Shown in pieces: positions 49,665-62,427 of a stretch of DNA of 64,000 nt. The notes under the pieces are model-generated. The model was not told where the DNA came from, did no database searches, and saw nothing but the letters and a program-made list of their open reading frames with translations. Both the position numbers and the translations under genes were made by a program. Source of the stretch: Clostridia bacterium (lineage in GTDB: Bacteria; Bacillota; Clostridia; Oscillospirales; CAG-272); assembly GCA_017462035.1 (NCBI GenBank), contig JAFTRY010000013.1, positions 425-64,424 on the forward strand, given 5' to 3'. Each line of letters opens with the position of its first letter. Position 1 is the stretch's first letter.

Positions 49665-50687
49665 TTATTTTGTGTTTTTTACTCTTTGAATCATAAAGTT
49701 TACGTCATCACAAGCATTGATAATATTTAGTATAGCGTCAGGATTGTTTTTCTTCCATACAACGAACAATTCATGGCAGAATGCCTGACCAACTTCCTCA
49801 ACGCCCGAAAAATCCAAGGTTATTTCTTTGAAATCGGAAACAAGTTCTCCGAGACGTCTTGCCTCGGAGCGCGAAATAGGATTGCCGTAAGCAAACATAT
49901 GTGATATTGGAATATGAGTACGAATAAAGCCTTTTTCAATATCAGAGAATCTATCAAATACTTCCTTGGTCGTTTTCTTTGTTTGGTTGTTTAATGACAT
50001 TGATACAAGTGTGCTTTTAATACTTCCGGATATTTTCACAGTAGCGTCGTTGAAATTATCTCTGGAGAAGAAGATGTTGTCAGAAAGAATAAAGAATTCA
50101 TCCATTAAATGGGAGGTGAAGAAGATACCTTCTCCGGAATGACAGCTTTCTGCTGTTGTGAATTTCCCGGCAAACAAAAGAGAAACACATTCGTCAAGAG
50201 TAAGCTCCTCGTTTTTTTCTTCCTTGAAAAACATTTGAATGTTTTTGAAAATACCAATTCCATTATCGGCTATTACTATTCGTGTTTCCAACGGATTGCT
50301 TGAAAAGGCTACCATTATTTGAGATGCCTTGGAATGCTCTATTGCATTGTTCATCATTTCTGTAAACGCATATTGCCAAGCTGAAAACACATTTTTTTCA
50401 TAGCCTTTCAGTAAAGGTTGAATATCGGTGCGGAAAATTTTATCTTCTCCAAGTGAACCGTTGTTATTATAATGAAACTTGTGAATGACAGTAACTATTT
50501 TATATGGCGGGACAGCTTTTTCAACTTTTTTGAGAATTTTTTCTTCGCACATCTTTTTGACATAGTTATAAACAGTTGACTTTGAAACACCAAAATATTC
50601 AACGGTTTTATGTGCAAAATCCTTATCTTTGGCATCAATAAGCTTTAGAATGTATTGCTTGATTTGATGCGCGTTTATGTTTGACAT
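49665..50687 (-). CDS. Fused winged-HTH, GHKL (HATPase_c) ATPase and STAS-like (DUF4325-type) protein
   Basis: N-terminal HTH FGVSKSTVYNYVKKM. N-box MMNNAIEHS, G1 box DNGIGI, G2-like GEGIF. C-terminal ITLDFSGVEEVGQAFCHELF. Confidence 0.7.
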   Translation of the reverse strand: MSNINAHQIKQYILKLIDAKDKDFAHKTVEYFGVSKSTVYNYVKKMCEEKILKKVEKAVPPYKIVTVIHKFHYNNNGSLGEDKIFRTDIQPLLKGYEKNVFSAWQYAFTEMMNNAIEHSKASQIMVAFSSNPLETRIVIADNGIGIFKNIQMFFKEEKNEELTLDECVSLLFAGKFTTAESCHSGEGIFFTSHLMDEFFILSDNIFFSRDNFNDATVKISGSIKSTLVSMSLNNQTKKTTKEVFDRFSDIEKGFIRTHIPISHMFAYGNPISRSEARRLGELVSDFKEITLDFSGVEEVGQAFCHELFVVWKKNNPDAILNIINACDDVNFMIQRVKNTK

Positions 50688-50716
50688 AAAGAATACCTCC
50701 TTTTATAGTCAACACC

Positions 50717-50744
50717 ATTATAACATATTTTCCAAAAAAGTCAA
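50717..50744 (-). promoter_or_regulatory. Promoter of the HTH-GHKL-STAS gene
   Basis: Minus strand reads TTGACT, 16-nt spacer, TGtTATAAT, then AGGAGG RBS. Confidence 0.6.
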
Positions 50745-50956
50745 CAATTATTCCAAATAATCAAAAAAACATTCCAATATTACCCATAAGATGTGACGAT
50801 TTTTGATGTTCACTACGGCAAATATTTATAGCCATATCGATAGTGCGAGTAAAAAGGAGACGCGCAAGCGATTGGAGAGTTGCTGGGGTGAGTATAAACA
50901 GAGAAGGGCTACCGTGGGGTAGCCCTTTGACATCAGTCACTTGGGGTGAGATATCA

Positions 50957-52081
50957 TTATCCTTTTGAATAACTAACTTTAGTATAGAGAAAAGTACCGC
51001 GGGGTACGCCCGAAATATTACTTTCGTCGATGATGAGCCAAATGCTGTCAAGTCCGAATTCAAGTCTTCCCGAAATCTCTTCGGCATCAAATGTTGCTAT
51101 ATTTCCGTTAAGTGTGGCTTTGACAGACACCTTGTGATGATATGGTGAAGATAAAGTATCATACAAATCAATCGATACAGTACGGTCGGTAAGGTTTGAT
51201 ATGGACAAGGTGTTTTCGTTGTAAAAACTGTTCCAATCCCATGAGTAAATATCAGGCAGATATAAATTCAGCTCTCCGAACAACCGTATAAAATCAAATT
51301 GTGCATTAGTCTTTGTTATGATACCAGCGTCATAACCGGATACCCACCCGTGCGTTAGCTCCGACCATTGGGATTTTGGTATGCGTATTTTTTCTCCGTT
51401 TGTGATATCGTAACACTCATCGTGATTATAATAGTTATAGCGTACGTACAGATATTTTTCGTCCAGTACCAAATTATCGTATTCGTTCAATGAATATATC
51501 TGTGTATAAAGATTGGATGATTCAAAGAGTTCGGTATAAAATCTTCCTTTTTCATCAATTCGACAGTAGTAATTTCTTTCGTAATTGTCAAGCAGTAATT
51601 TTGGTTGGTTTTCTTCCATTGAAAAAACAGCAATAATATCGTACAGATCGGTGAGAAGTATAAGTTCCTCGCTTCCGTTTTGGTTTAAATCTGTTATGGT
51701 ATAGCCGAAATAATTTCTTCCATCTTCCTGATATTTGTATGCATATTCATCAAGATAAAATCTGTATCCCGAAATGAACAGTTTTTTATATAGCTCTTTT
51801 GTTTCTTCCTCGAGAATAGCATCAATGCCGTCGCATTTATTTGAAAGCATTTTCTCCTCGGTATAGGAAGGATAAAGATTCACAATCTGCTTGCACATAG
51901 TGATAATATCATCATAGCTTAAAACATCATCGGTGGATACAGAGTTTTTCATAATGTTTTCCGTAGATCCAACTGTATTTTCAGGTGTTGTATTTATGTC
52001 ATTTTGCGTTGCATCACAAGCGGTAAGGGCGGATAAAAGTAATGTGAAGAGCAGCAATAAACACAAGAATTTTTTTCTCAT
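50957..52081 (-). CDS. Lipoprotein (374 aa), function unknown
   Basis: Lipobox LSALTAC. Tyr/Asn/Asp-rich mature protein. GGAGGA RBS. Confidence 0.65.
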   Translation of the reverse strand: MRKKFLCLLLLFTLLLSALTACDATQNDINTTPENTVGSTENIMKNSVSTDDVLSYDDIITMCKQIVNLYPSYTEEKMLSNKCDGIDAILEEETKELYKKLFISGYRFYLDEYAYKYQEDGRNYFGYTITDLNQNGSEELILLTDLYDIIAVFSMEENQPKLLLDNYERNYYCRIDEKGRFYTELFESSNLYTQIYSLNEYDNLVLDEKYLYVRYNYYNHDECYDITNGEKIRIPKSQWSELTHGWVSGYDAGIITKTNAQFDFIRLFGELNLYLPDIYSWDWNSFYNENTLSISNLTDRTVSIDLYDTLSSPYHHKVSVKATLNGNIATFDAEEISGRLEFGLDSIWLIIDESNISGVPRGTFLYTKVSYSKG

Positions 52082-52438: not shown

Positions 52439-52527
52439 TGGCGGAGAGAGAGGGATTCGAACCCTCGTGTGCTTGCGCACAAACTGATTTCGAGTCAGCC
52501 CCGTTATGACCACTTCGATATCTCTCC
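52439..52527 (-). tRNA. tRNA-Ser (anticodon CGA), CCA encoded
   Basis: 89-nt class II tRNA: GGAGAGA acceptor, anticodon arm GCTGA-CTCGAAA-TCAGT, long variable arm, T arm GAGGGTTCGAATCCCTC. Confidence 0.92.
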
Positions 52528-52802: not shown

Positions 52803-52870
52803 TGCGGAGAAGATTTAGTGACGAGGACAAGCCGCTTTCGAGTCAGTCCCGTTATGACCACTTCGATACG
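52803..52870 (-). pseudogene. Degenerate tRNA-Ser copy (5' half plus 3' tip, no T arm)
   Basis: 52836-52868 matches tRNA-Ser 52488-52520 at 32 of 33 positions. 52802-52812 resembles the tRNA 3' end. No acceptor pairing or T arm can be folded. Confidence 0.55.
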
Positions 52871-53018: not shown

Positions 53019-54353
53019 TTAAGCTTCGACGACCTCTTCGGATTCCTCCGATTCGGTGGAGAGCAGGGAAACCTGTACTTCCTTCGTCATCTGATCGTCT
53101 GCCTCGGTCACACAGATCAACAGATTTTCATATTGGAAGGAATACCCCTTTTCAGGAATACTGCCGCACTGCTCAGTAATCCAGCCGTTTACTGTAGACG
53201 ATTGAATTTCATCATTCTCCGGTAGCGAGAAAAATTCAAAGAATTCCGCAATGGAGGTGCTAGATAGGACACGGTAAGTATGCTCATCGGTAGCAAGAAT
53301 CGCTTCGATCGCCTCGTCCTGCTCGTCCCAGATCTCACCGACCAGCTCTTCAATGATATCCTCCATAGTGACGATACCCATGGTCAAACCGTATTCATTC
53401 AAAACCACTACCATATGGATATGCTTGTCTCGCATATCCTTAAACAAGACATCCAGGTGGACGGTTTCCGGAACAAATTCGGGGCTCAGAAGAACGCTTT
53501 CAATGGAAAAATCGGGGTCCCGATACGTCAGCAGATAACGTCTGACGTGCAAAATTCCCACAATATTATCTACGGTACCGTCATATACGGGAATACGGGA
53601 ATATCCCTCCGTGTCAATAACCTCAAGCAGTTTTTCCGTCGTGATATCCTTCGGAACTGCAATCATTGCCGTTCTGGGTGTCAGAATATCCGCTGCGTTA
53701 CGTCTCTCCAGTTTAAAAACATTTTTGATGTATTCAATATCATCCTGCTTCAGCGTTCCTTCATCGGCACCGGCATCTAACATGACGACGATATCCTCTT
53801 CTGAAACCGCCTCCTCTTTTTCGTGAGGATCCATGCCGAACAGGCGAAGACAGGCGTTGGTAGACAGTGTTAAAAACCAAATGATAGGCTTCAAGGCGGT
53901 GGTTAAAAAGGTCATTACACCACAAACGGAGTTTGCCAGCTTCTCCTTGTGCTTCATAGCCACTCTTTTGGGAACCAACTCGCCCAGAATCAGGGTGAAG
54001 TAAGAAAGGATCAGCGTGACCGCTACGACGGAAACCGTATGGATCGTTCCTACCATGGAAGGGGATAGATCAAAGGTTCTCACGCACCAGCTTGTGAGAC
54101 GCTCCGCAAAGTTATCCGCGGCGAACGCAGAACCGAGAAATCCGGCAAGGGTAATTCCAACCTGGATCGTAGAGAGGAATTTCGTGGGATTCTCGATGAT
54201 TTTTAACATTTTCTTTGCTTTTTTGTCACCGTCCTCCGCCATGGCTCGAACCTTCTTTTCGTTTAAGGAAATCAAGGCGATTTCTGTAGCGGCAAAAAAA
54301 GCGTTTAGGGCAATTAGAATAATTTGTAATAATAATTGTCGAAATAAGGACAT
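53019..54353 (-). CDS. Hemolysin-family / CNNM-type protein (DUF21, CBS pair, CorC_HlyC)
   Basis: N-terminus LNAFFAATEIALISL, CBS region, C-terminal transporter-associated domain. GGAGG RBS. Confidence 0.88.
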   Translation of the reverse strand: MSLFRQLLLQIILIALNAFFAATEIALISLNEKKVRAMAEDGDKKAKKMLKIIENPTKFLSTIQVGITLAGFLGSAFAADNFAERLTSWCVRTFDLSPSMVGTIHTVSVVAVTLILSYFTLILGELVPKRVAMKHKEKLANSVCGVMTFLTTALKPIIWFLTLSTNACLRLFGMDPHEKEEAVSEEDIVVMLDAGADEGTLKQDDIEYIKNVFKLERRNAADILTPRTAMIAVPKDITTEKLLEVIDTEGYSRIPVYDGTVDNIVGILHVRRYLLTYRDPDFSIESVLLSPEFVPETVHLDVLFKDMRDKHIHMVVVLNEYGLTMGIVTMEDIIEELVGEIWDEQDEAIEAILATDEHTYRVLSSTSIAEFFEFFSLPENDEIQSSTVNGWITEQCGSIPEKGYSFQYENLLICVTEADDQMTKEVQVSLLSTESEESEEVVEA

Positions 54354-54624
54354 ATAAACCTCCAAAAATTATTTGTCATTTTTTGTAAATTTCAAAGCAA
54401 ACAGATTGTCAGCACCGTAGGCTTAAAAAATTCATGTCAAAAAAGACAAGCCTTTTCGGAAGATATCCCAGACATAATCGTCCCTCTTCGGGGCAACTTC
54501 GGGGCAACGGATCCACAAAACCAACTCCTTTCCAATTACAATTAATTTAATTATAACACATTTATCAATCAGAATCAATACCAAAAAGCATATTTTTAAT
54601 TTTTTTTAAAATTCATCAGTTGGA

Positions 54625-54653
54625 TTGACAGTGCTGAAAAAACATGGTACAAT
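54625..54653 (+). promoter_or_regulatory. Promoter of the three-gene defence-like cassette
   Basis: TTGACA, 17-nt spacer, TGgTACAAT. Confidence 0.6.
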
Positions 54654-54687
54654 AATATAATAAGCAAAAATGAGAGGAGGATGCTAT

Positions 54688-56370
54688 ATGAGTGAAAAAT
54701 ATGACCGTCTTGGTGAATTGGATCGCTTTTGGGATCTGTCGGAACTGACACCAAAGCCGGCGAGCGGAGCGAGACCGATCAGGCGTCCTCATTCCACCGA
54801 AGGGGTAGAGATCACTGCCTCTTCCGGAATGTCTGAGCCTCCCGTTTCTTCCGGTAGCGGAACGGTGTTGACTCGGTACATTCCCCCGAGATCCACGGGT
54901 ACGCAATTGAGTGCGGCATCCCTGACCCATGTGTTGACCTATGCTCCTACAGAATCCTTGATCCATAAGGTGATTTTGAAAAAATGGAAATGCTCTTACT
55001 CGTATTACAGCGAATTTCTCTCTGATGCTATTCGATACTTAGATCGGGAAGGAACGGAATGTGACATTGTGCCGTTTTTCTCCTACGTGCCTCAATATAA
55101 TCAAATGAGCGACGCGCAGCTTGCTTGTTATTTTTGGTTTCGTCACTGTGCCCGCGGAGGCTGTTATCTAAAGGTGGATTGCAGTTATGTGCTGCTATAC
55201 GTATTCGAGCTGATCAATCTGGGAGAGCGGTTGGATCCGAAAGAGACTCAAGATCAGTTGGTGGGACTTTGGAACGCTTACAGCGAAGCATACCCGGGAA
55301 TTTCGGTGAAGTTGGCGGATTGGATCTGTGATTACAGTCTGATCCATCGGTTGCCGCCGCCCGCCCGGGGACGTTCACGCCTGACTGCTAAGGTGATTGC
55401 TCTGAAGGAGTTTTTTATTCCCATGCCAAGGGGAGACGTGGAGGGATGTACCCGTTCCTTGCTCCGTTTTTGCAATTCATACGACTACAAAACCAGCAAG
55501 TTCGCTACCCCCGAAAACCTTCCGCTTTTTGACCGCCATATTTACGAGGCATTGCTTCGGGCGGTACGATATTATTCCGCTGACGGAAGACTCTTGTCCG
55601 GTGTTGCCTTTGAGGATAGCCGTCTGGCGCGTGATGCGTACGCCGGCGCACTTTGCGTAGCGGAGGAAAAATACCGTTTGGAGGTGGAGTATTGTTCTTT
55701 TTCACGTTCCAACGAGCTTCGGTTCTTGATCGGAGATTTGGTGAAATATGCGGAGAACAAGCTTCGGGGACACCTGGGGATCAAGTCTCGCATGACGGTA
55801 TATTCGGTTCCCTCCGAGGTTGCCAAGCTCCTGGATGAATATTTTGCCGAAGCACTTCCCGGACGGATCCATACTCCGAGGGAGCGAGAAAAGCAAGCGT
55901 ATGAGGCTTTGTACGACGTTCCTCACAAGCCGTTGTCTCTTTCTGACGCGGCAAGGATCGAGGAGGAATCCTGGAGTACCACAAGGGAATTGGTGGATGC
56001 CTTTGAGACAGAGGAAGGGGCGGAAGCTTCGGTTACGGTACCTTTACACCAATCAGAGCCTTCCGTAACTGCGGAAGCTTCCTTGGCTGAGTCCGCCGAG
56101 GAACCCGCTGATGAATGTGGGGAATGGAAGCGTGCTTTGGGAGAGCTTTTCGCGGTTCTGGTACAGACGGCGGAAGGAGACTTGGGCGCGCTGGCAAGGT
56201 ATGCCCGTACAGAAGGCAGACTTTCCGATACGGTTGCGGAAGTAATCAATGAGGCAGGATGGGATCGGATGGGAGACGCGATCCTGGAAGAAAGAGACGG
56301 CGGCTATGCCGTGATAGAAGATTATCGTGAAGAGCTTTTAGGACAGCTCCGAGCGGAGGAGGATTTGTGA
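54688..56370 (+). CDS. sngA: TerB-N / TerB-C domain protein (Shango SngA-like)
   Basis: TerB_N-like VPFFSYVPQYNQMSDAQLACYFWFRHCARGG...YVLLYVFELIN. C-terminal TerB_C-like EVINEAGWDRMGDAILEE...YAVIEDYREEL. GAGGAGG RBS. Confidence 0.7.
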   Translation: MSEKYDRLGELDRFWDLSELTPKPASGARPIRRPHSTEGVEITASSGMSEPPVSSGSGTVLTRYIPPRSTGTQLSAASLTHVLTYAPTESLIHKVILKKWKCSYSYYSEFLSDAIRYLDREGTECDIVPFFSYVPQYNQMSDAQLACYFWFRHCARGGCYLKVDCSYVLLYVFELINLGERLDPKETQDQLVGLWNAYSEAYPGISVKLADWICDYSLIHRLPPPARGRSRLTAKVIALKEFFIPMPRGDVEGCTRSLLRFCNSYDYKTSKFATPENLPLFDRHIYEALLRAVRYYSADGRLLSGVAFEDSRLARDAYAGALCVAEEKYRLEVEYCSFSRSNELRFLIGDLVKYAENKLRGHLGIKSRMTVYSVPSEVAKLLDEYFAEALPGRIHTPREREKQAYEALYDVPHKPLSLSDAARIEEESWSTTRELVDAFETEEGAEASVTVPLHQSEPSVTAEASLAESAEEPADECGEWKRALGELFAVLVQTAEGDLGALARYARTEGRLSDTVAEVINEAGWDRMGDAILEERDGGYAVIEDYREELLGQLRAEEDL

Positions 56371-57734
56371 TGAACGAAAAAGACAGGGAGCTTCAAAAAA
56401 TACCTAAGCGGATTCTCAATACACTTTTGGTTTCGGTGTCTGCGGGGGTGGTTCCTCGGGTCGGTGCTCCTTATATTGCCATTGGTCGAAAGGATGAGAT
56501 TGCCGCGTTACTTTCCGATCTGGAGCAGGTGAACGAGGGGTGCGGTACCATGCGCTTTGTGGTAGGGCGCTACGGAAGCGGTAAAAGCTTCTTGATGCAG
56601 CTGATCCGCGGCTATGCTTTGGAACGAAATTTTGTGACGGCGGATGCCGATCTATCACCCGAACGCCGATTGTACGGAAGCTCCGGCAGCGGTGTGGCAA
56701 CCTATCGGGAGCTGATGAAGAATCTGGCAACGAAGACCTCTCCCGATGGCGGTGCTCTGCCGAAGATCATCGCGCGGTGGATCGAGCTTTTGAAATCCCA
56801 GCTGGTCAGCGAAGGGGTGGATCCCGAGAGTGACCGCTTTGACGGGGCGTTGCACGCCCTTGTGTCAGAGAAGCTGAGAGAGGTAGAATTTATGGTGGGA
56901 GGCTTTGATTTCTCCCGTGTGATTACCGAATATTACCGCGCTTTTCTGGAGGAAAACGACGAAAAGCGAAGTGCCTGCTTGCGCTGGCTCAGAGGAGAAT
57001 ATTCCACCAAGACCGAAGCGAGACAAGAGCTTGGCTTTTCCGTATCGGTCATTATCGACGACGACAACTGGTACGATTTTATTAAGCTGTGGGCGGTCCT
57101 TTTGCGGTTTATCGGATATCGAGGCTTGATCGTATTGATCGATGAATGTGTCAATCTTTATAAGATCAACCATCGGGTAAGCCGAGAAAACAACTATGAA
57201 AAAATTCTTTCTATGTTCAACGATACCCTTCAAGGAAGGGCACCGGGCTTGGGACTGATCTTAGGAGGTACGCCTCAGTTCATGGACGATCCGAGACGGG
57301 GACTTTTCAGCTATGAGGCGCTGAAAAGCCGCCTATGCGACAGTCGGTTTGCCTCGGAGGAATATCGAAATTTCCTGGGTCCTGTCATTCGTTTAAAGCG
57401 TTTGACCGACGACGAGCTCTTTGCTCTGATTGCTCGGATCACAAAGCTTTACGCTGTGAATTATGGACACCAGCCCAGGATCACCCAAGAGGAAATGGTT
57501 CGTTTTCTGAACACGGCTCTTGCGCGTACGGGAGCTGATCGGATGATTACTCCCCGGGAAATGCTGCGTGACTATATGACGGTGTTGAATATACTGATGC
57601 AGAATGATACCGTGACCTTTGACCAAATTCTTGCCGGTTCCCTTGGCGGAACGGAGGAGCCTGTCCGTGAGGAAAGAGAAGCTTCCGAAGCAAAAAAGAG
57701 TGTTGCCTTTACGGCAGAGGATATCGAATTTTAA
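56370..57734 (+). CDS. sngB: P-loop ATPase, DUF2791/BrxD-like (Shango SngB-like)
   Basis: Walker A GRYGSGKS, Walker B IVLIDECVN. The start overlaps the sngA stop (TGATG). Confidence 0.7.
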   Translation: MNEKDRELQKIPKRILNTLLVSVSAGVVPRVGAPYIAIGRKDEIAALLSDLEQVNEGCGTMRFVVGRYGSGKSFLMQLIRGYALERNFVTADADLSPERRLYGSSGSGVATYRELMKNLATKTSPDGGALPKIIARWIELLKSQLVSEGVDPESDRFDGALHALVSEKLREVEFMVGGFDFSRVITEYYRAFLEENDEKRSACLRWLRGEYSTKTEARQELGFSVSVIIDDDNWYDFIKLWAVLLRFIGYRGLIVLIDECVNLYKINHRVSRENNYEKILSMFNDTLQGRAPGLGLILGGTPQFMDDPRRGLFSYEALKSRLCDSRFASEEYRNFLGPVIRLKRLTDDELFALIARITKLYAVNYGHQPRITQEEMVRFLNTALARTGADRMITPREMLRDYMTVLNILMQNDTVTFDQILAGSLGGTEEPVREEREASEAKKSVAFTAEDIEF

Positions 57735-57760
57735 CGGATTTCATTCAGACAGGAGGAGTT

Positions 57761-59998
57761 ATGACTGAGGCAGATCGTATTTTTGAGCGGTTTCCCGTCT
57801 TCATTCGAGAATTTATATATTCCCACGGATGGGAGAATCTGCGCCAGGTTCAGCTGGAGGCGGCAAGGACGATTTTGGATACCGACCATCATTTACTGCT
57901 GACCTCTTCTACGGCGAGCGGAAAGACTGAGGCGGCTTTTTTTCCGATCTTGACGAAGATCGGAGAAGTGCCATCGGAGGGGATTTCTGTGCTCTACATC
58001 GCACCTCTTAAGAGCTTGATAAACGATCAATTCGCCCGTATGGACGAGATTCTTCGGGAAAGCGGAATCCGTGTGACTCACTGGCACGGCGACGTGGCGC
58101 AATCTCAAAAAAGAAAGCTGTTGGAGAGACCGGAGGGGATTTTACAGATCACGCCTGAGTCATTGGAAGCTATGTTGCTCAACCGTCCCAACGACATTGT
58201 TCGTCTGTTTTCGGGACTTCAGTTTGTGGTGCTGGATGAAATTCATATACTGATGGGAACTGATCGGGGAAATCAGATCCTTTGTCAGCTGACACGCTTG
58301 GAGCGCATGATCGGTACCTCTCCCCGACGGATCGGACTATCGGCAACAGTGGGAGATCCTGCCGGTGCCGCAGAGTGGCTCAGCGCGGGAACCGATCATC
58401 CCACTGACGTACCTCTGTTCTCGGAGGAGAAGATTCGTTGGCGTTTGGGAATGGAGCATTTTTTTATTCAGAATCCCAATTTTGACCAGACAGAGAACGC
58501 TTTGACGGGTAGGGAAGACAATCGCGCTCTGATGGACGCGGGATATGAGTTCGTTTACGACTGCGTCAGGCAAAAAAAATCTCTTGTCTTCTCCAATTCT
58601 CGGGAGGAGACCGAGTACGTTTGCGCCACTTTGCGGCAGATCGCCGCCAAGCGAAAGGATCCCGATGTATTCCTGATCCACCACGGCAACCTTTCCGCCT
58701 CTCTGCGTGAGGAAGCCGAGCTGAAAATGAAGGACGAAGATTCCTTTGCGGTCACCTGTGCCACCGTGACCATGGAGCTTGGAATCGATATTGGACGGTT
58801 GGAACGGATCATGCAGATGGATTCCCCCAATTCGGTGTCAAGTTTCTTGCAGAGATTGGGGCGCTCGGGACGAAGAGGACAGCCGCCGGAAATGATGATG
58901 GCGTTCAGGGAGGAAGAGCCTCTTCCCAACGCTCCTTTACCTCAGCTCATTCCATGGAGTCTGCTTCGTGCCATTGCCATCGTTCAGCTTTATATTGAGG
59001 AGCGGTTCGTGGAGCCGCCCTCGGATAAAAAAGAGCCCTTGAGTCTTTTGTTCCATCAGACCTTAAGTGTGCTTGCATCCAAGGGGGAACTGACAGCGGC
59101 GCGGCTTGCGGGAGAGATACTGACTCTTCCTCCGTTTCGCAAAATTTCCAAGGAAACGTACAAAGCGCTGTTGGTCAGCATGTTGAATAACGATTTTTTG
59201 GAAATGACCGAAGAGAAGGGACTCATTGTAGGTATGGCAGGCGAACGCTTGCTGAACAGCTTTAAATTCTACGCTGTATTTCAAGATTGTGAGGATTTTA
59301 CCGTCCGATGTGAGTCGGAGGAGATCGGCACCATTACCACACCGCCTCCCGTGGGAGACCGGTTTGCTTTAGCGGGACGTGTATGGGAGGTAGTAGAACT
59401 GGATGCTCCCAGACGGTTAGTCTACGTAAAGGGCGTAGAAGGGAAAATGGAGGTATCCTGGCCGGGAGAATACGGAGAGATCCATACCCGCATTTTGGAA
59501 CGGATGAAGCAGGTGCTTTCGGAGGATACCGTGTACCCTTATCTGAAGCCAAACGCGGCGCGCCGCTTGGAAATGGCACGTCGTGTTGCCGCCAATACGG
59601 GAATGACCCGTCGGTCTTTGATCCACCTGGGCGGCTATACCTGGTGTCTTTTTCCATGGTTGGGGACTCGGTCCTTCCGTACTCTGCGAAAAATGATCGG
59701 CTCGGTTGCTTCGGAATTCGGAATTTCCGGAATGGACTTTGAGGGATGTAACTACATGACCTTCCGCATGGAACGGGGAAATGAAAGAGCCCTTCTGGAT
59801 GGATTGCTGTGCCGTTTTTCAGAGGTTGACGAGCCTGCTCAAGAGCTGGTGAGCCCAAGGGAATTGCCGGTTTTTGAAAAATACGATCAGTATATTCCCG
59901 GAGACCTCTTGCGCCATGCGTACGCCACAGATCGTTTGAATTTGTCGGAGGCGAGAAAACGCTTATCCCAGATTGTACAGGAAGAGACGGTTGATTAA
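57761..59998 (+). CDS. sngC: DEAD/DEAH superfamily-2 helicase, Lhr/BrxHI-like (Shango SngC-like)
   Basis: Motif I STASGKTEAAF, motif II VLDEIH, motif III LSATVG, motif VI QRLGRSGRR. Long C-terminal extension. Confidence 0.78.
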   Translation: MTEADRIFERFPVFIREFIYSHGWENLRQVQLEAARTILDTDHHLLLTSSTASGKTEAAFFPILTKIGEVPSEGISVLYIAPLKSLINDQFARMDEILRESGIRVTHWHGDVAQSQKRKLLERPEGILQITPESLEAMLLNRPNDIVRLFSGLQFVVLDEIHILMGTDRGNQILCQLTRLERMIGTSPRRIGLSATVGDPAGAAEWLSAGTDHPTDVPLFSEEKIRWRLGMEHFFIQNPNFDQTENALTGREDNRALMDAGYEFVYDCVRQKKSLVFSNSREETEYVCATLRQIAAKRKDPDVFLIHHGNLSASLREEAELKMKDEDSFAVTCATVTMELGIDIGRLERIMQMDSPNSVSSFLQRLGRSGRRGQPPEMMMAFREEEPLPNAPLPQLIPWSLLRAIAIVQLYIEERFVEPPSDKKEPLSLLFHQTLSVLASKGELTAARLAGEILTLPPFRKISKETYKALLVSMLNNDFLEMTEEKGLIVGMAGERLLNSFKFYAVFQDCEDFTVRCESEEIGTITTPPPVGDRFALAGRVWEVVELDAPRRLVYVKGVEGKMEVSWPGEYGEIHTRILERMKQVLSEDTVYPYLKPNAARRLEMARRVAANTGMTRRSLIHLGGYTWCLFPWLGTRSFRTLRKMIGSVASEFGISGMDFEGCNYMTFRMERGNERALLDGLLCRFSEVDEPAQELVSPRELPVFEKYDQYIPGDLLRHAYATDRLNLSEARKRLSQIVQEETVD

Positions 59999-60048
59999 AA
60001 TGTCAAATAGATCGGTGGATTTTCTTGTTTTATTGTGAGAAATAACTA

Positions 60049-60077
60049 TTGACATTTTTCGCAAAAAGGAGTACTAT
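60049..60077 (+). promoter_or_regulatory. Promoter of the ilvA leader
   Basis: TTGACA, 17-nt spacer, TACTAT. Confidence 0.55.
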
Positions 60078-60084
60078 AATAAGG

Positions 60085-60352
60085 TATAGAGATGCAATGA
60101 CGGGGAGCGACCGGGCACCTTCTTTTCAGAGAGCCGTTGGCTGGTGGGAAACGGTAAGAGTTGCCTGAGTTAAATCACCCCTGAGCATGTTGTCGAAGGG
60201 AATCGCGAAGCGAGGACAGGTAGAGCAACACGTATTTCTGCGTTAAAGAATAATGTATGAGAGTACATGAGTGGTTCGTAGGAACAAGAAGAGTGGTACC
60301 GCGGAGTTTTCAGCCTTCGTCTCTTTTGAGGGAGACGAAGGCTGTCTTGTTT
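60085..60352 (+). promoter_or_regulatory. T-box leader, probable Ile specifier (AUC at 60174-60176)
   Basis: AGAGA box, distal GGTGGGAAACGG, T-box sequence AGAGTGGTACCGCGG (60289-60305), and terminator CAGCCTTCGTCTC / GAGACGAAGGCTG followed by Ts. ATC followed by A sits just 5' of the CCCC that pairs with GGGG at the Stem I base. Confidence 0.8.
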
Positions 60353-60396: not shown

Positions 60397-61593
60397 ATGC
60401 TGACATTAGACAAGGTTTATCAAGCCGCATTTGTATTGAAGGACGTGATTCGCGAAACCGCCCTTACCCCCTCTCCGAAGTTGAATCCGACGTGCAAAAA
60501 CGTGTATTTAAAAACGGAGAATCTCCAGCTTACCGGATCCTTCAAGGTTCGTGGCGCCGGCTATATGATCTCTCAGCTTAGCGCGGAGGAGAAGGCGAAG
60601 GGAGTGATCGCCTGCTCGGCGGGAAATCACGCGCAGGGCGTGGCTCTCGCGGCGGCAAAATACGGGATCCGCTCTGTCATTTGTCTCCCTGAGGGTGCTC
60701 CGATTTCCAAGGTGGAGGCAACCAAGAGCTACGGTGCGGAAGTGGTGATGGTGAAGGGTGTTTACGACGACGCGTACAAGCATGCCTTGAAGCTGAGGGA
60801 CGAGATGGGATATACCTTTGTACATCCCTTTAATGATGACGATGTCATTGCGGGACAGGGAACCGTCGGTTTGGAGCTTTTGAATCAGTGTGCCTCTCTG
60901 GATGCCGTTGTCGTGCCCGTTGGCGGTGGCGGCTTGATTTCCGGCATTGCCTTTGTGATCAAGCATTTGGCACCTCATATTAAGGTGTACGGTGTTCAAG
61001 CGGCGGGAGCACCCAGTATGGCAAATTCCGTACGGGACGGCAAGATCGAGCGGCTGCCGTCGGTATCAACCATTGCCGATGGTATCGCGGTGAAGGAACC
61101 CGGTGATAATACCTTTGCGTTGTGTTCAAAATATGTGGACGAAATCGTTACCGTTACTGAGGACGAGATCTCAACGGCGATCCTCGCCTTGGTGGAGCAG
61201 CACAAGATGATCGCCGAGGGTGCTGGCGCTGTTTCGGTGGCGGCTGTCATGTTTGATAAGCTTCCCTTGAAGGATAAGAACGTAGCGTGTGTAATATCGG
61301 GCGGTAATATCGACGTGACCATACTCTCCCGTGTCATGGAGAGAGGTCTTCTGAAGTCGGGAAGGACCTGCAATTTGTGTATTGAGCTGATGGATAAGCC
61401 CGGACAGCTTCGAGACGTTTCGGAGATCATTGCCGAGCTGGGCGGAAACGTAATCTCGGTTCATCACGAGCGTGCCAGCGAAACGAAGGATATCAACGGA
61501 TGCTTCCTTCGTCTGGTTCTGGAAACCAGAAACTATGAACATATCGAGCATATTACCGATGCGCTGAAGCGTGCCGGCTTCCGCTTGGTCTAA
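60397..61593 (+). CDS. ilvA: Threonine ammonia-lyase (threonine dehydratase) with C-terminal ACT-like domain
   Basis: PLP lysine motif GSFKVRGA plus GGGGLISG. Confidence 0.9.
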   Translation: MLTLDKVYQAAFVLKDVIRETALTPSPKLNPTCKNVYLKTENLQLTGSFKVRGAGYMISQLSAEEKAKGVIACSAGNHAQGVALAAAKYGIRSVICLPEGAPISKVEATKSYGAEVVMVKGVYDDAYKHALKLRDEMGYTFVHPFNDDDVIAGQGTVGLELLNQCASLDAVVVPVGGGGLISGIAFVIKHLAPHIKVYGVQAAGAPSMANSVRDGKIERLPSVSTIADGIAVKEPGDNTFALCSKYVDEIVTVTEDEISTAILALVEQHKMIAEGAGAVSVAAVMFDKLPLKDKNVACVISGGNIDVTILSRVMERGLLKSGRTCNLCIELMDKPGQLRDVSEIIAELGGNVISVHHERASETKDINGCFLRLVLETRNYEHIEHITDALKRAGFRLV

Positions 61594-62149: not shown

Positions 62150-62427
62150 AATTAAAGGCGATAAAGGGAATTAGTAGTATGTGAGCGTTTACAGAAAGCC
62201 GATGGGTGATGGAAATCGGTAGCGTGAGCTTATGAATCTCCTCCCCCAGCTTCCGCTTGAAGACCGAGATCGGTTGTGTAGACGCGGACGGAAGTCTCCG
62301 TTATCTTAGACGGCTTTACTGTTGGGTGAAGTACGAGTGGCTGATATTTCAGCAATAAGAGTGGTACCGCAGAGTGTTTTTTATGACCTTTGTCTCTTTG
62401 TGAATCAAGAGATAAAGGTCTTTTTTG
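62150..62427 (+). promoter_or_regulatory. T-box leader, specifier unresolved (CUC Leu or AUC Ile candidates at 62233-62239)
   Basis: GCGATAAAGGGAATTAGTA K-turn/AGUA region, AGAAAG box, T-box AGAGTGGTACCGCAG, and terminator GACCTTTGTCTCTT / AAGAGATAAAGGTC followed by T6. Confidence 0.75.

Follow-up and report, generated by a model that had tools for sequence, protein, structure and literature searches.

The sngABC cassette described here occupies positions 54688-59998 of a 64,000-nt window (the whole stretch of DNA that was analysed) on contig JAFTRY010000013.1 of a Clostridia bacterium (assembly GCA_017462035.1), and encodes a TerB_N/TerB_C protein, a P-loop ATPase and a superfamily 2 (SF2) helicase. 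It is best explained, with a probability of roughly 0.6, as a Shango-family operon that was fixed in an ancestor of uncultured herbivore-gut Oscillospiraceae/Clostridia and has since been passed on by vertical descent under strong purifying selection. The genes are not the cargo of a recently acquired island. Shango, which consists of a TerB-like protein, an ATPase and a helicase, provides anti-phage activity in Escherichia coli and Pseudomonas aeruginosa (Millman et al. 2022; Johnson et al. 2023), where it sits in variable islands or hotspots. A preliminary description of this DNA, made from the sequence alone, credited the recognition of the triad as a mobile TerB-associated operon to Anantharaman, Iyer and Aravind (2012), an attribution supported only indirectly, through the citation of that work in Millman et al. 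2022. A literature search found no paper on the mechanism or structure of Shango.

Profile searches against PADLOC and Pfam, which had been named beforehand as checks, and against NCBIfam were carried out on the three proteins (window proteins are deposited in NCBI as MBQ9086221 and MBQ9086223). The Sng profiles were the top PADLOC matches in all three cases, namely SngA with an E-value of 2e-45 over residues 82-558, SngB with 5.2e-168 (558 bits) and SngC with 1.3e-245 (816 bits), well ahead of the second-best matches to BrxD for SngB (4.8e-51, 172 bits) and to BrxHI for SngC (9.6e-130, 432 bits). The Shango label given earlier to the cassette is upheld by these scores, and the parallel drawn at the same time with the BrxD/BrxHI pair of type 2 BREX holds at the level of significant secondary matches, behind the Sng profiles. 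Pfam recognized TerB_N (9.7e-15) and TerB_C (2.3e-9) in SngA, both above the gathering scores, BrxC_BrxD (PF10923, formerly DUF2791; 3.4e-157) in SngB, and DEAD (1.6e-29) together with Helicase_C (2.5e-17) in SngC, in agreement with the signatures that had been read from each gene. No nuclease or methylase domain was detected by Pfam, as had also been noted, and none is present in the structural model of SngC. The genes are adjacent and co-directional in the order A-B-C, and the same arrangement recurs in nine related lineages and on two plasmids; the patchy island or mobile distribution that is typical, albeit not defining, of Shango was not found here. Both its sequence and its architecture make the cassette a bona fide Shango (SngABC) family member. 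Shango is an already known kind of system, and a standard PADLOC or DefenseFinder run would call the locus Shango.

Vertical descent is indicated by synteny. In eight of the related lineages sampled, ilvA-ridA-ilvBNC-coaX directly follows the triad, and in a ninth coaX directly follows it (triad with ilv: loci L001, L164, L167-170, L172, L178, L181-190 and L192-197; triad with coaX: L175). A first set of loci was found via the contigs of SngA homologues. Among these, the triad stands immediately upstream of ilvA-ridA-ilvB-ilvN-ilvC-coaX in L164 (SngA 67% identical to that of the window), L167-169 (55%), L170-171 (55%), L172-174 (49%) and L178-180 (41%), and the gene upstream of it differs lineage by lineage. 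In L175-177 (46%), coaX follows the triad after 107 nt (L175:13608-13716), and an ilv-type promoter, TTGACA...TAATAT, is kept 44 nt after sngC. Because this promoter persists, the sequence suggests that the block from the T-box and ilvA to ilvC was secondarily deleted, leaving coaX under the control of what used to be the ilv promoter.

To guard against ascertainment bias, three IlvA homologues were picked without reference to Shango. For the one that is 93% identical to the window's IlvA (P0124), the triad was present upstream in all 10 of the places listed, and for the one with 84% identity (P0226) in all six. The third (P0159, 85% identity; locus L191, GCA_965332375.1, CBDPPF010000061.1) has no triad upstream of ilvA and is the sole such relative among those sampled; a radical-SAM/DUF2344 pair occupies the position of the triad, and no coaX follows ilvC. 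At least 21 further IlvA clusters have a longest contig of the same length as that of an SngA or SngC cluster, which serves as a proxy for co-location and sets a lower bound. Exact look-ups of the window's SngC and IlvA returned nothing, although L001 carries these same proteins. Loci centred on homologues of the CNNM gene that flanks the cassette in the window were also collected, 80 from species-representative genomes and 80 from metagenomes; in these loci, whose best CNNM proteins are 71-74% identical to that of the window, no Sng or IlvA genes lie within 10 kb. The CNNM adjacency is lineage-specific and uninformative on the presence of the triad. A comparison of the locus across relatives, which the preliminary description had proposed, returned for the most part the invariant core synteny that it had named, in combination with a lack of phage phenotype on expression, as speaking against its own proposal, with L191 as the one exception.

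The divergence of the proteins was also followed. Across the lineages, identity to the window amounts to 78-85% for SngB, 72-83% for SngC and 41-67% for SngA, next to 84-95% for IlvA, 81-95% for IlvB and 79-84% for RidA. Mantel tests of the pairwise protein distances among eight lineages against the IlvA+IlvB distances gave correlations of 0.95 for SngA (p 0.0005), 0.89 for SngB (p 0.0004) and 0.82 for SngC (p 0.0009), as expected for co-inheritance of the Sng and Ilv proteins. With L181 as the reference, SngB is 73-84% and SngC 70-82% identical, and CoaX only 43-57%; for CNNM, identity to the copy in the window is about 70%, and for three other neighbours 48-70%, as measured in the one metagenome-assembled genome with two available contigs. 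SngB and SngC are better conserved than several housekeeping proteins. Between the closest lineages, approximate dN/dS values are 0.04-0.07 for SngB and SngC, 0.12-0.16 for SngA and 0.02-0.04 for IlvA and IlvB, of which only the ranking is reliable, given that synonymous sites are saturated even here (dS 0.8-2.7). At the strain level, nine comparisons among ten contigs of one lineage yielded, from small counts, pN/pS values of 0.15 for SngA, 0.10 for SngB and 0.16 for SngC, similar to those of IlvB (0.11) and IlvC (0.15), and no indels. The evolution of SngA outpaces that of its two partners two- to fourfold.

The layout of the operon had been described as a TGATG overlap, a 26-nt gap and a single near-consensus promoter, and each of these features was recovered in the junction sequences and in a promoter scan. 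The window's list of open reading frames confirms three co-directional frames on the + strand at 54688-56370 (sngA), 56370-57734 (sngB) and 57761-59998 (sngC). The sngA promoter (54624-54663, +) combines a -35 element ATTGACA, a 17-nt spacer and an extended -10 element TG-n-TACAAT, followed by the conserved AATATAATAA; with TTGACA at 54625-54630 and TG-n-TACAAT at 54645-54653, it agrees with 11 of the 12 consensus positions and is the top promoter-like site of the region. The -35 and extended -10 blocks are invariant in nine of nine diverged lineages, and the remaining intergenic DNA is unalignable. The start of sngA is likely ATG 54688 rather than ATG 54670, because a GAGGAGG ribosome-binding site precedes it and the nine-lineage alignment agrees. 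At the junction with sngB (GAT TTG TGATG AAC), the sngA stop TGA (56368-56370) and the sngB ATG at 56370 have one base in common; a GTG at 56367 is an alternative sngB start, and a ribosome-binding site, GGAGGAGGA, is located within the 3'-terminal part of sngA. Exactly 26 nt separate sngB from sngC, and they include an AGGAGG ribosome-binding site. A terminator scan detected no terminator internal to sngABC, and the three genes are read as a single operon under a strong, conserved promoter of predicted sigma-A type.

The downstream boundary (59999-60344, +) contains no intrinsic terminator after sngC, and a promoter, a T-box and a hairpin follow. The promoter scan places an ilvA promoter-like site at 60049-60077, and the T-box leader extends over 60088-60327 (Rfam T-box, 99.4 bits), with its terminator hairpin at 60311-60344. 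In none of the nine lineages does an intrinsic terminator stand between sngC and the promoter that follows it; the ilvA T-box supplies the first terminator on the downstream side. Read-through from the strong sngA promoter into the T-box leader may add to the regulated ilv transcription.

The composition of sngABC is host-like, with a GC content of 0.51-0.52 and 0.53-0.57 at third codon positions (GC3), as in the neighbouring genes, and neither flanking direct repeats nor an adjoining integrase or transposase were found around the cassette. Together with the invariant promoter, these features fit a long residence at the site. The preliminary description had implied a mobile cassette near a tRNA hotspot, an implication that was not borne out in view of the nine-lineage synteny, the co-divergence with the Ilv proteins, the host-like composition and the lack of repeats.

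The protein SngA (560 aa) was modelled with AlphaFold (AF2) from 65 homologues, at a predicted local distance difference test score (pLDDT) of 82. It begins with an N-terminal part (residues 1-25, 54688-54760) whose helix carries a conserved L-D-x-F-W-D-(L/I)-S-x-L-x-P motif, and continues with a disordered linker (residues 26-76, about 50 in all) in which S, T, P and G abound, and with a folded, confidently modelled core that contains TerB_N (residues about 79-440); an acidic, disordered second linker (residues 443-478) leads to the C-terminal TerB_C domain (residues 479-559), winged-helix-like in shape, all of these being encoded on the + strand. The secondary structure and weak Foldseek matches to LysR DNA-binding domains faintly suggest that TerB_C may be a winged helix. 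No TerB domain proper (PF05099) was found in SngA by Pfam at E <= 0.01, and no transmembrane segment was found either (maximum 19-residue hydropathy 1.27); SngA is predicted to be soluble. Foldseek searches of the model against the PDB and BFVD gave no significant whole-protein match, returning weak winged-helix matches and a phage 'TerB-C' fragment, and a sequence search of solved structures gave no relative. A relaxed Pfam scan of sub-regions produced sub-threshold matches only, among them a weak Ig-like match for an N-terminal fragment.

Conservation within SngA is unevenly distributed, the linkers and TerB_C showing 8-32% mean identity and the core 54-63%. The family comprises 2020 50%-cluster representatives at E <= 1e-3. 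When the 146 nearest 50%-cluster representatives that were newly retrieved are examined, the FW motif occurs near the N-terminus in 109, with close variants in many others, and is absent from both plasmid SngAs examined (Klebsiella and C. estertheticum). In the form D-D-F-W-D-(I/L)-x-x-L-x-P, and with a disordered linker behind it, the motif has the look of a docking peptide on a tether.

SngB (56370-57734, +; 454 aa) had been described as a BrxD-like P-loop ATPase, an assignment with which PF10923 and the motif positions agree: Walker A (GRYGSGKS) lies at residues 66-73, with K72, and Walker B (LIDECVN) at residues 256-262. On the NCBIfam BrxD equivalog NF033438 it scores 169.5 bits, the cut-off being 350 bits, and no relative of SngB was found in a sequence search of solved structures. 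SngC (57761-59998, +; 745 aa) is an SF2 helicase with RecA1, RecA2, winged-helix and C-terminal domains, and all four motifs reported for it were located, namely ASGKTE (residues 52-57, with K55), DEIH (159-162), SAT (194-196) and QRLGRSGRR (364-372). Its closest sequence matches in the PDB are Lhr (5v9x, 9e-31) and MrfA (6znp). The AF2 model of SngC (mean pLDDT 75) superposes over its whole length on the Lhr core (Foldseek E 4.8e-26, TM 0.68), and MrfA comes next. Because of this superposition, the C-terminal third is modelled as an Lhr-type winged helix plus C-terminal domain with no hidden nuclease; relaxed Pfam scans agree, showing only a sub-threshold WH_Lhr match at the C-terminus. SngC is classed as a relative of the Lhr family and not as a member, since its scores on the Lhr-type equivalogs of NCBIfam are all far below the cut-offs (e.g., 216 vs 850 bits for TIGR04121).

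Relatives of these proteins are also found on mobile DNA. SngB relatives with 38-50% identity occur on 690 PLSDB plasmids (449 from Klebsiella, 144 from Salmonella), 541 of which are typed as conjugative, and the plasmid matches reach rhizobia, actinomycetes and haloarchaea. For the SngA of this clade, only four weak partial plasmid matches were obtained. A search of phage records with SngB gave no match, and IMG/VR yielded a single one, weak and partial. Complete A-B-C triads are carried by the Klebsiella pneumoniae IncFIB conjugative plasmid NZ_CP069995.1, next to IS26, and by pCF002-344, a plasmid of Clostridium estertheticum, where the triad has a relaxase gene on one side and IS110 on the other. 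The Klebsiella triad scores higher on the Sng models than that of the window, and its SngA (L200:2655-4964; 769 aa) begins with a hydrophobic, transmembrane-like segment, MELLNFLAAIFVIYLLFF. The N-termini of SngA appear to differ between Shango subfamilies, being of a membrane-anchored type in one and predicted soluble with an FW motif in the other.

The surroundings of the operon were confirmed by gene calls and Rfam: as stated in the preliminary description, the cassette lies between a CNNM/CBS/CorC gene (53019-54365, -) and the T-box leader of ilvA (60397-61593, +; TIGR01127, 487 bits). A second T-box leader at 62152-62400 (108 bits) precedes ilvB, in addition to the first (99 bits) before ilvA-ridA, which splits the ilv block into at least two T-box-controlled units. 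The nearby tRNA-Ser hotspot that had been pointed out exists insofar as a 42-nt partial copy (52827-52868), 90% identical, lies 348 nt from the intact tRNA-Ser(CGA) gene (52439-52527). On the other side of tRNA-Ser, at 49665-52081, there is a pair of genes with a GC content of 0.35-0.36, compared with 0.49 for the window, which encode a protein with HATPase_c and DUF4325 (STAS-like) domains and a 374-aa protein of no family with a signal-peptide-like N-terminus. The pair and the tRNA copy resemble a small islet that was gained by horizontal transfer at the scar of a tRNA attachment site; PADLOC returned no matches on it. The suggested connection with the cassette did not stand: scar and islet are on the far side of the CNNM gene and have no relation to sngABC. 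In the lineage with the 93%-identical IlvA, proteins of the upstream flank (L181:1-4166, L188:671-2428) have faint RHS-repeat and HNH-repeat matches, and this flank could be a polymorphic-toxin locus.

By analogy with the characterized systems, an anti-phage activity of sngABC in this host may be presumed, and for the division of labour among the three proteins and their substrate we infer the following scheme. SngA would act as a soluble scaffold or sensor, in which two flexibly tethered modules are attached to the TerB_N-containing core: the FW peptide, conserved at the N-terminus, and, after the acidic linker, the fast-evolving, winged-helix-like TerB_C. SngB, as a BrxD-like P-loop ATPase, could serve as a nucleotide-dependent switch or loader. 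SngC would be the effector, an Lhr-like helicase presumably moving 3' to 5' on single-stranded nucleic acid as characterized Lhr does, and its targets for unwinding or stripping would be nucleic-acid intermediates that are invading or aberrant, for instance RNA:DNA hybrids or those formed when phages replicate or recombine. Because SngC would act by unwinding or stripping, interference would be non-nucleolytic.

Several points weigh against a Shango defence operon of long vertical standing. The SngA profile match is only moderate (2e-45), and a BLAST comparison with the enterobacterial plasmid SngA is not significant (E = 0.17). The Foldseek matches that liken TerB_C to a winged helix are weak (probability about 0.9, E 0.4-0.8), and in RecA2 the SngC model reaches no more than moderate confidence (mean pLDDT 75). 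The evidence for phage resistance comes from the Shango of E. coli and P. aeruginosa and not from that of Firmicutes. The lineages were taken opportunistically from metagenome contigs and not from a complete species tree. Moreover, the long fixation, a conservation of SngB and SngC that exceeds the level seen in CoaX and CNNM, and the conserved, constitutive-looking promoter are atypical for a defence system and would fit a housekeeping role equally well.

Such a role is the alternative that deserves most attention, although it is clearly the less probable explanation. The triad would then be a domesticated or housekeeping complex for the maintenance of the cell's own nucleic acids (DNA repair, removal of RNA:DNA hybrids, rescue of stalled forks), and any anti-phage effect would be secondary or absent. 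It would account for the fixed position beside a core biosynthetic operon in nine sampled lineages, for SngB and SngC being more conserved than CoaX (in the comparison with L181) and than the CNNM protein (about 70% identical to the window copy), for their dN/dS of about 0.05 at saturated synonymous sites, and for the invariance of the near-consensus promoter; among solved structures, SngC is closest to Lhr and MrfA, two helicases of DNA repair, Pfam scans show no toxin or nuclease effector, and essentially no close relative was found on viral contigs or in phage records. Yet the same architecture is proven defence elsewhere and occurs on hundreds of conjugative plasmids as well as in islands beside IS elements or a relaxase, SngA changes two to four times as fast as SngB and SngC, as would be expected of a parasite-facing sensor, and the relative at L191, whose IlvA is 85% identical, does without the triad there, so that it is not indispensable at that locus. 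A related proposal, that in this Oscillospiraceae clade the triad became, or always was, a near-core genome-maintenance complex expressed constitutively from the conserved strong promoter, and kept by vertical descent for long enough to saturate synonymous sites, is doubtful. If it were true, a cellular module for surveillance or repair, with an Lhr-like helicase at its centre, would have given rise to Shango defence as a mobile branch, and phages would be affected only incidentally, through the action of the module on aberrant intermediates of nucleic acids.

The remaining alternatives fare much worse. That a recent mobile defence island was inserted between CNNM and ilvA and is tied to the scarred tRNA-Ser hotspot is very improbable: the tRNA-Ser copy at 52827-52868 and the low-GC (0.35) pair at 49665-52081 are close by, Shango is mobile in other taxa and the flank upstream of the triad varies between lineages, but the proposal is contradicted by the synteny data, in which the triad remains joined to ilvA or coaX across nine lineages, even where SngA identity has fallen to 37-41%, and diverges together with Ilv, and by the GC and GC3 values, the lack of repeats, integrase or transposase, and the CNNM gene that separates the tRNA scar from the cassette. 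There is hardly any likelihood that genes 2 and 3 are the BrxD and BrxHI of a type 2 BREX (Pgl-like) remnant or satellite that has lost its methyltransferase and phosphatase. The Sng profiles far outscore the secondary BrxD (4.8e-51; 558 vs 172 bits) and BrxHI (9.6e-130; 816 vs 432 bits) matches on which this idea draws, PF10923 being common to BrxC and BrxD; it is contradicted by the sub-cut-off score on the BrxD equivalog (169.5 vs 350 bits) and by the absence of core genes, as no PglX, PglZ or PglW-type genes flank the triad in the window or at related loci and a TerB_N/C gene always comes first. A membrane stress or surveillance module of the Ter (tellurite-resistance-like) type, with SngA at the membrane as has been proposed for TerB proteins, is also highly improbable. 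TerB_N and TerB_C were first described in TerB-associated proteins, the Klebsiella plasmid SngA starts with a hydrophobic segment, and reviews have speculated that Shango surveys the membrane; the window SngA, however, contradicts this option by having neither PF05099 nor a transmembrane segment (maximum 19-residue hydropathy 1.27), there are no adjacent ter genes, and the partners are a nucleic-acid helicase and an AAA-type ATPase.

A Shango operon inherited vertically, as favoured here, has consequences for how the family is viewed. Shango is usually described as island or plasmid cargo, and here it is a core-like cluster at one chromosomal site. The clade offers a test case for whether a defence system can be kept in the long term like a core function, or whether it has a cellular role. 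The many vertically related triads form a natural series of orthologues for the analysis of co-evolution and interfaces among SngA, SngB and SngC, in which SngB, SngC, the SngA core and the N-terminal FW motif are constrained and the linkers and TerB_C are free to vary. For annotation, a warning follows: a 'Shango' call by DefenseFinder or PADLOC in gut Clostridia does not imply a mobile island.

Compared with known systems, the cassette shares with Shango the same three genes in the same order, with a PF10923 ATPase, an Lhr-like DEAD/DEAH helicase, a TerB_N/TerB_C protein and no nuclease. Its SngC is colinear with that of the Klebsiella plasmid, with 30% identity over 733 aa. Unlike plasmid and island Shango, the operon of this clade is chromosomal, beside ilv/coaX, and vertically inherited across many species, and unlike the enterobacterial protein, its SngA represents a distinct, predicted soluble subfamily with an N-terminal D-D-F-W-D motif. 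With the BrxD and BrxHI of type 2 BREX it has in common the pairing of a PF10923 ATPase with an Lhr-like helicase and a significant homology at the profile level, whereas it lacks the PglX methyltransferase, PglZ and PglW and is led by a TerB_N/C protein that is lacking in BREX. Finally, SngC has the RecA1-RecA2-winged-helix-C-terminal-domain architecture of Lhr from M. smegmatis (5v9x) and of MrfA/YprA from B. subtilis (6znp). Lhr and MrfA work alone or with a nuclease (MrfB); SngC is only about 17-20% identical to them and, unlike them, is always co-encoded with SngA and SngB.

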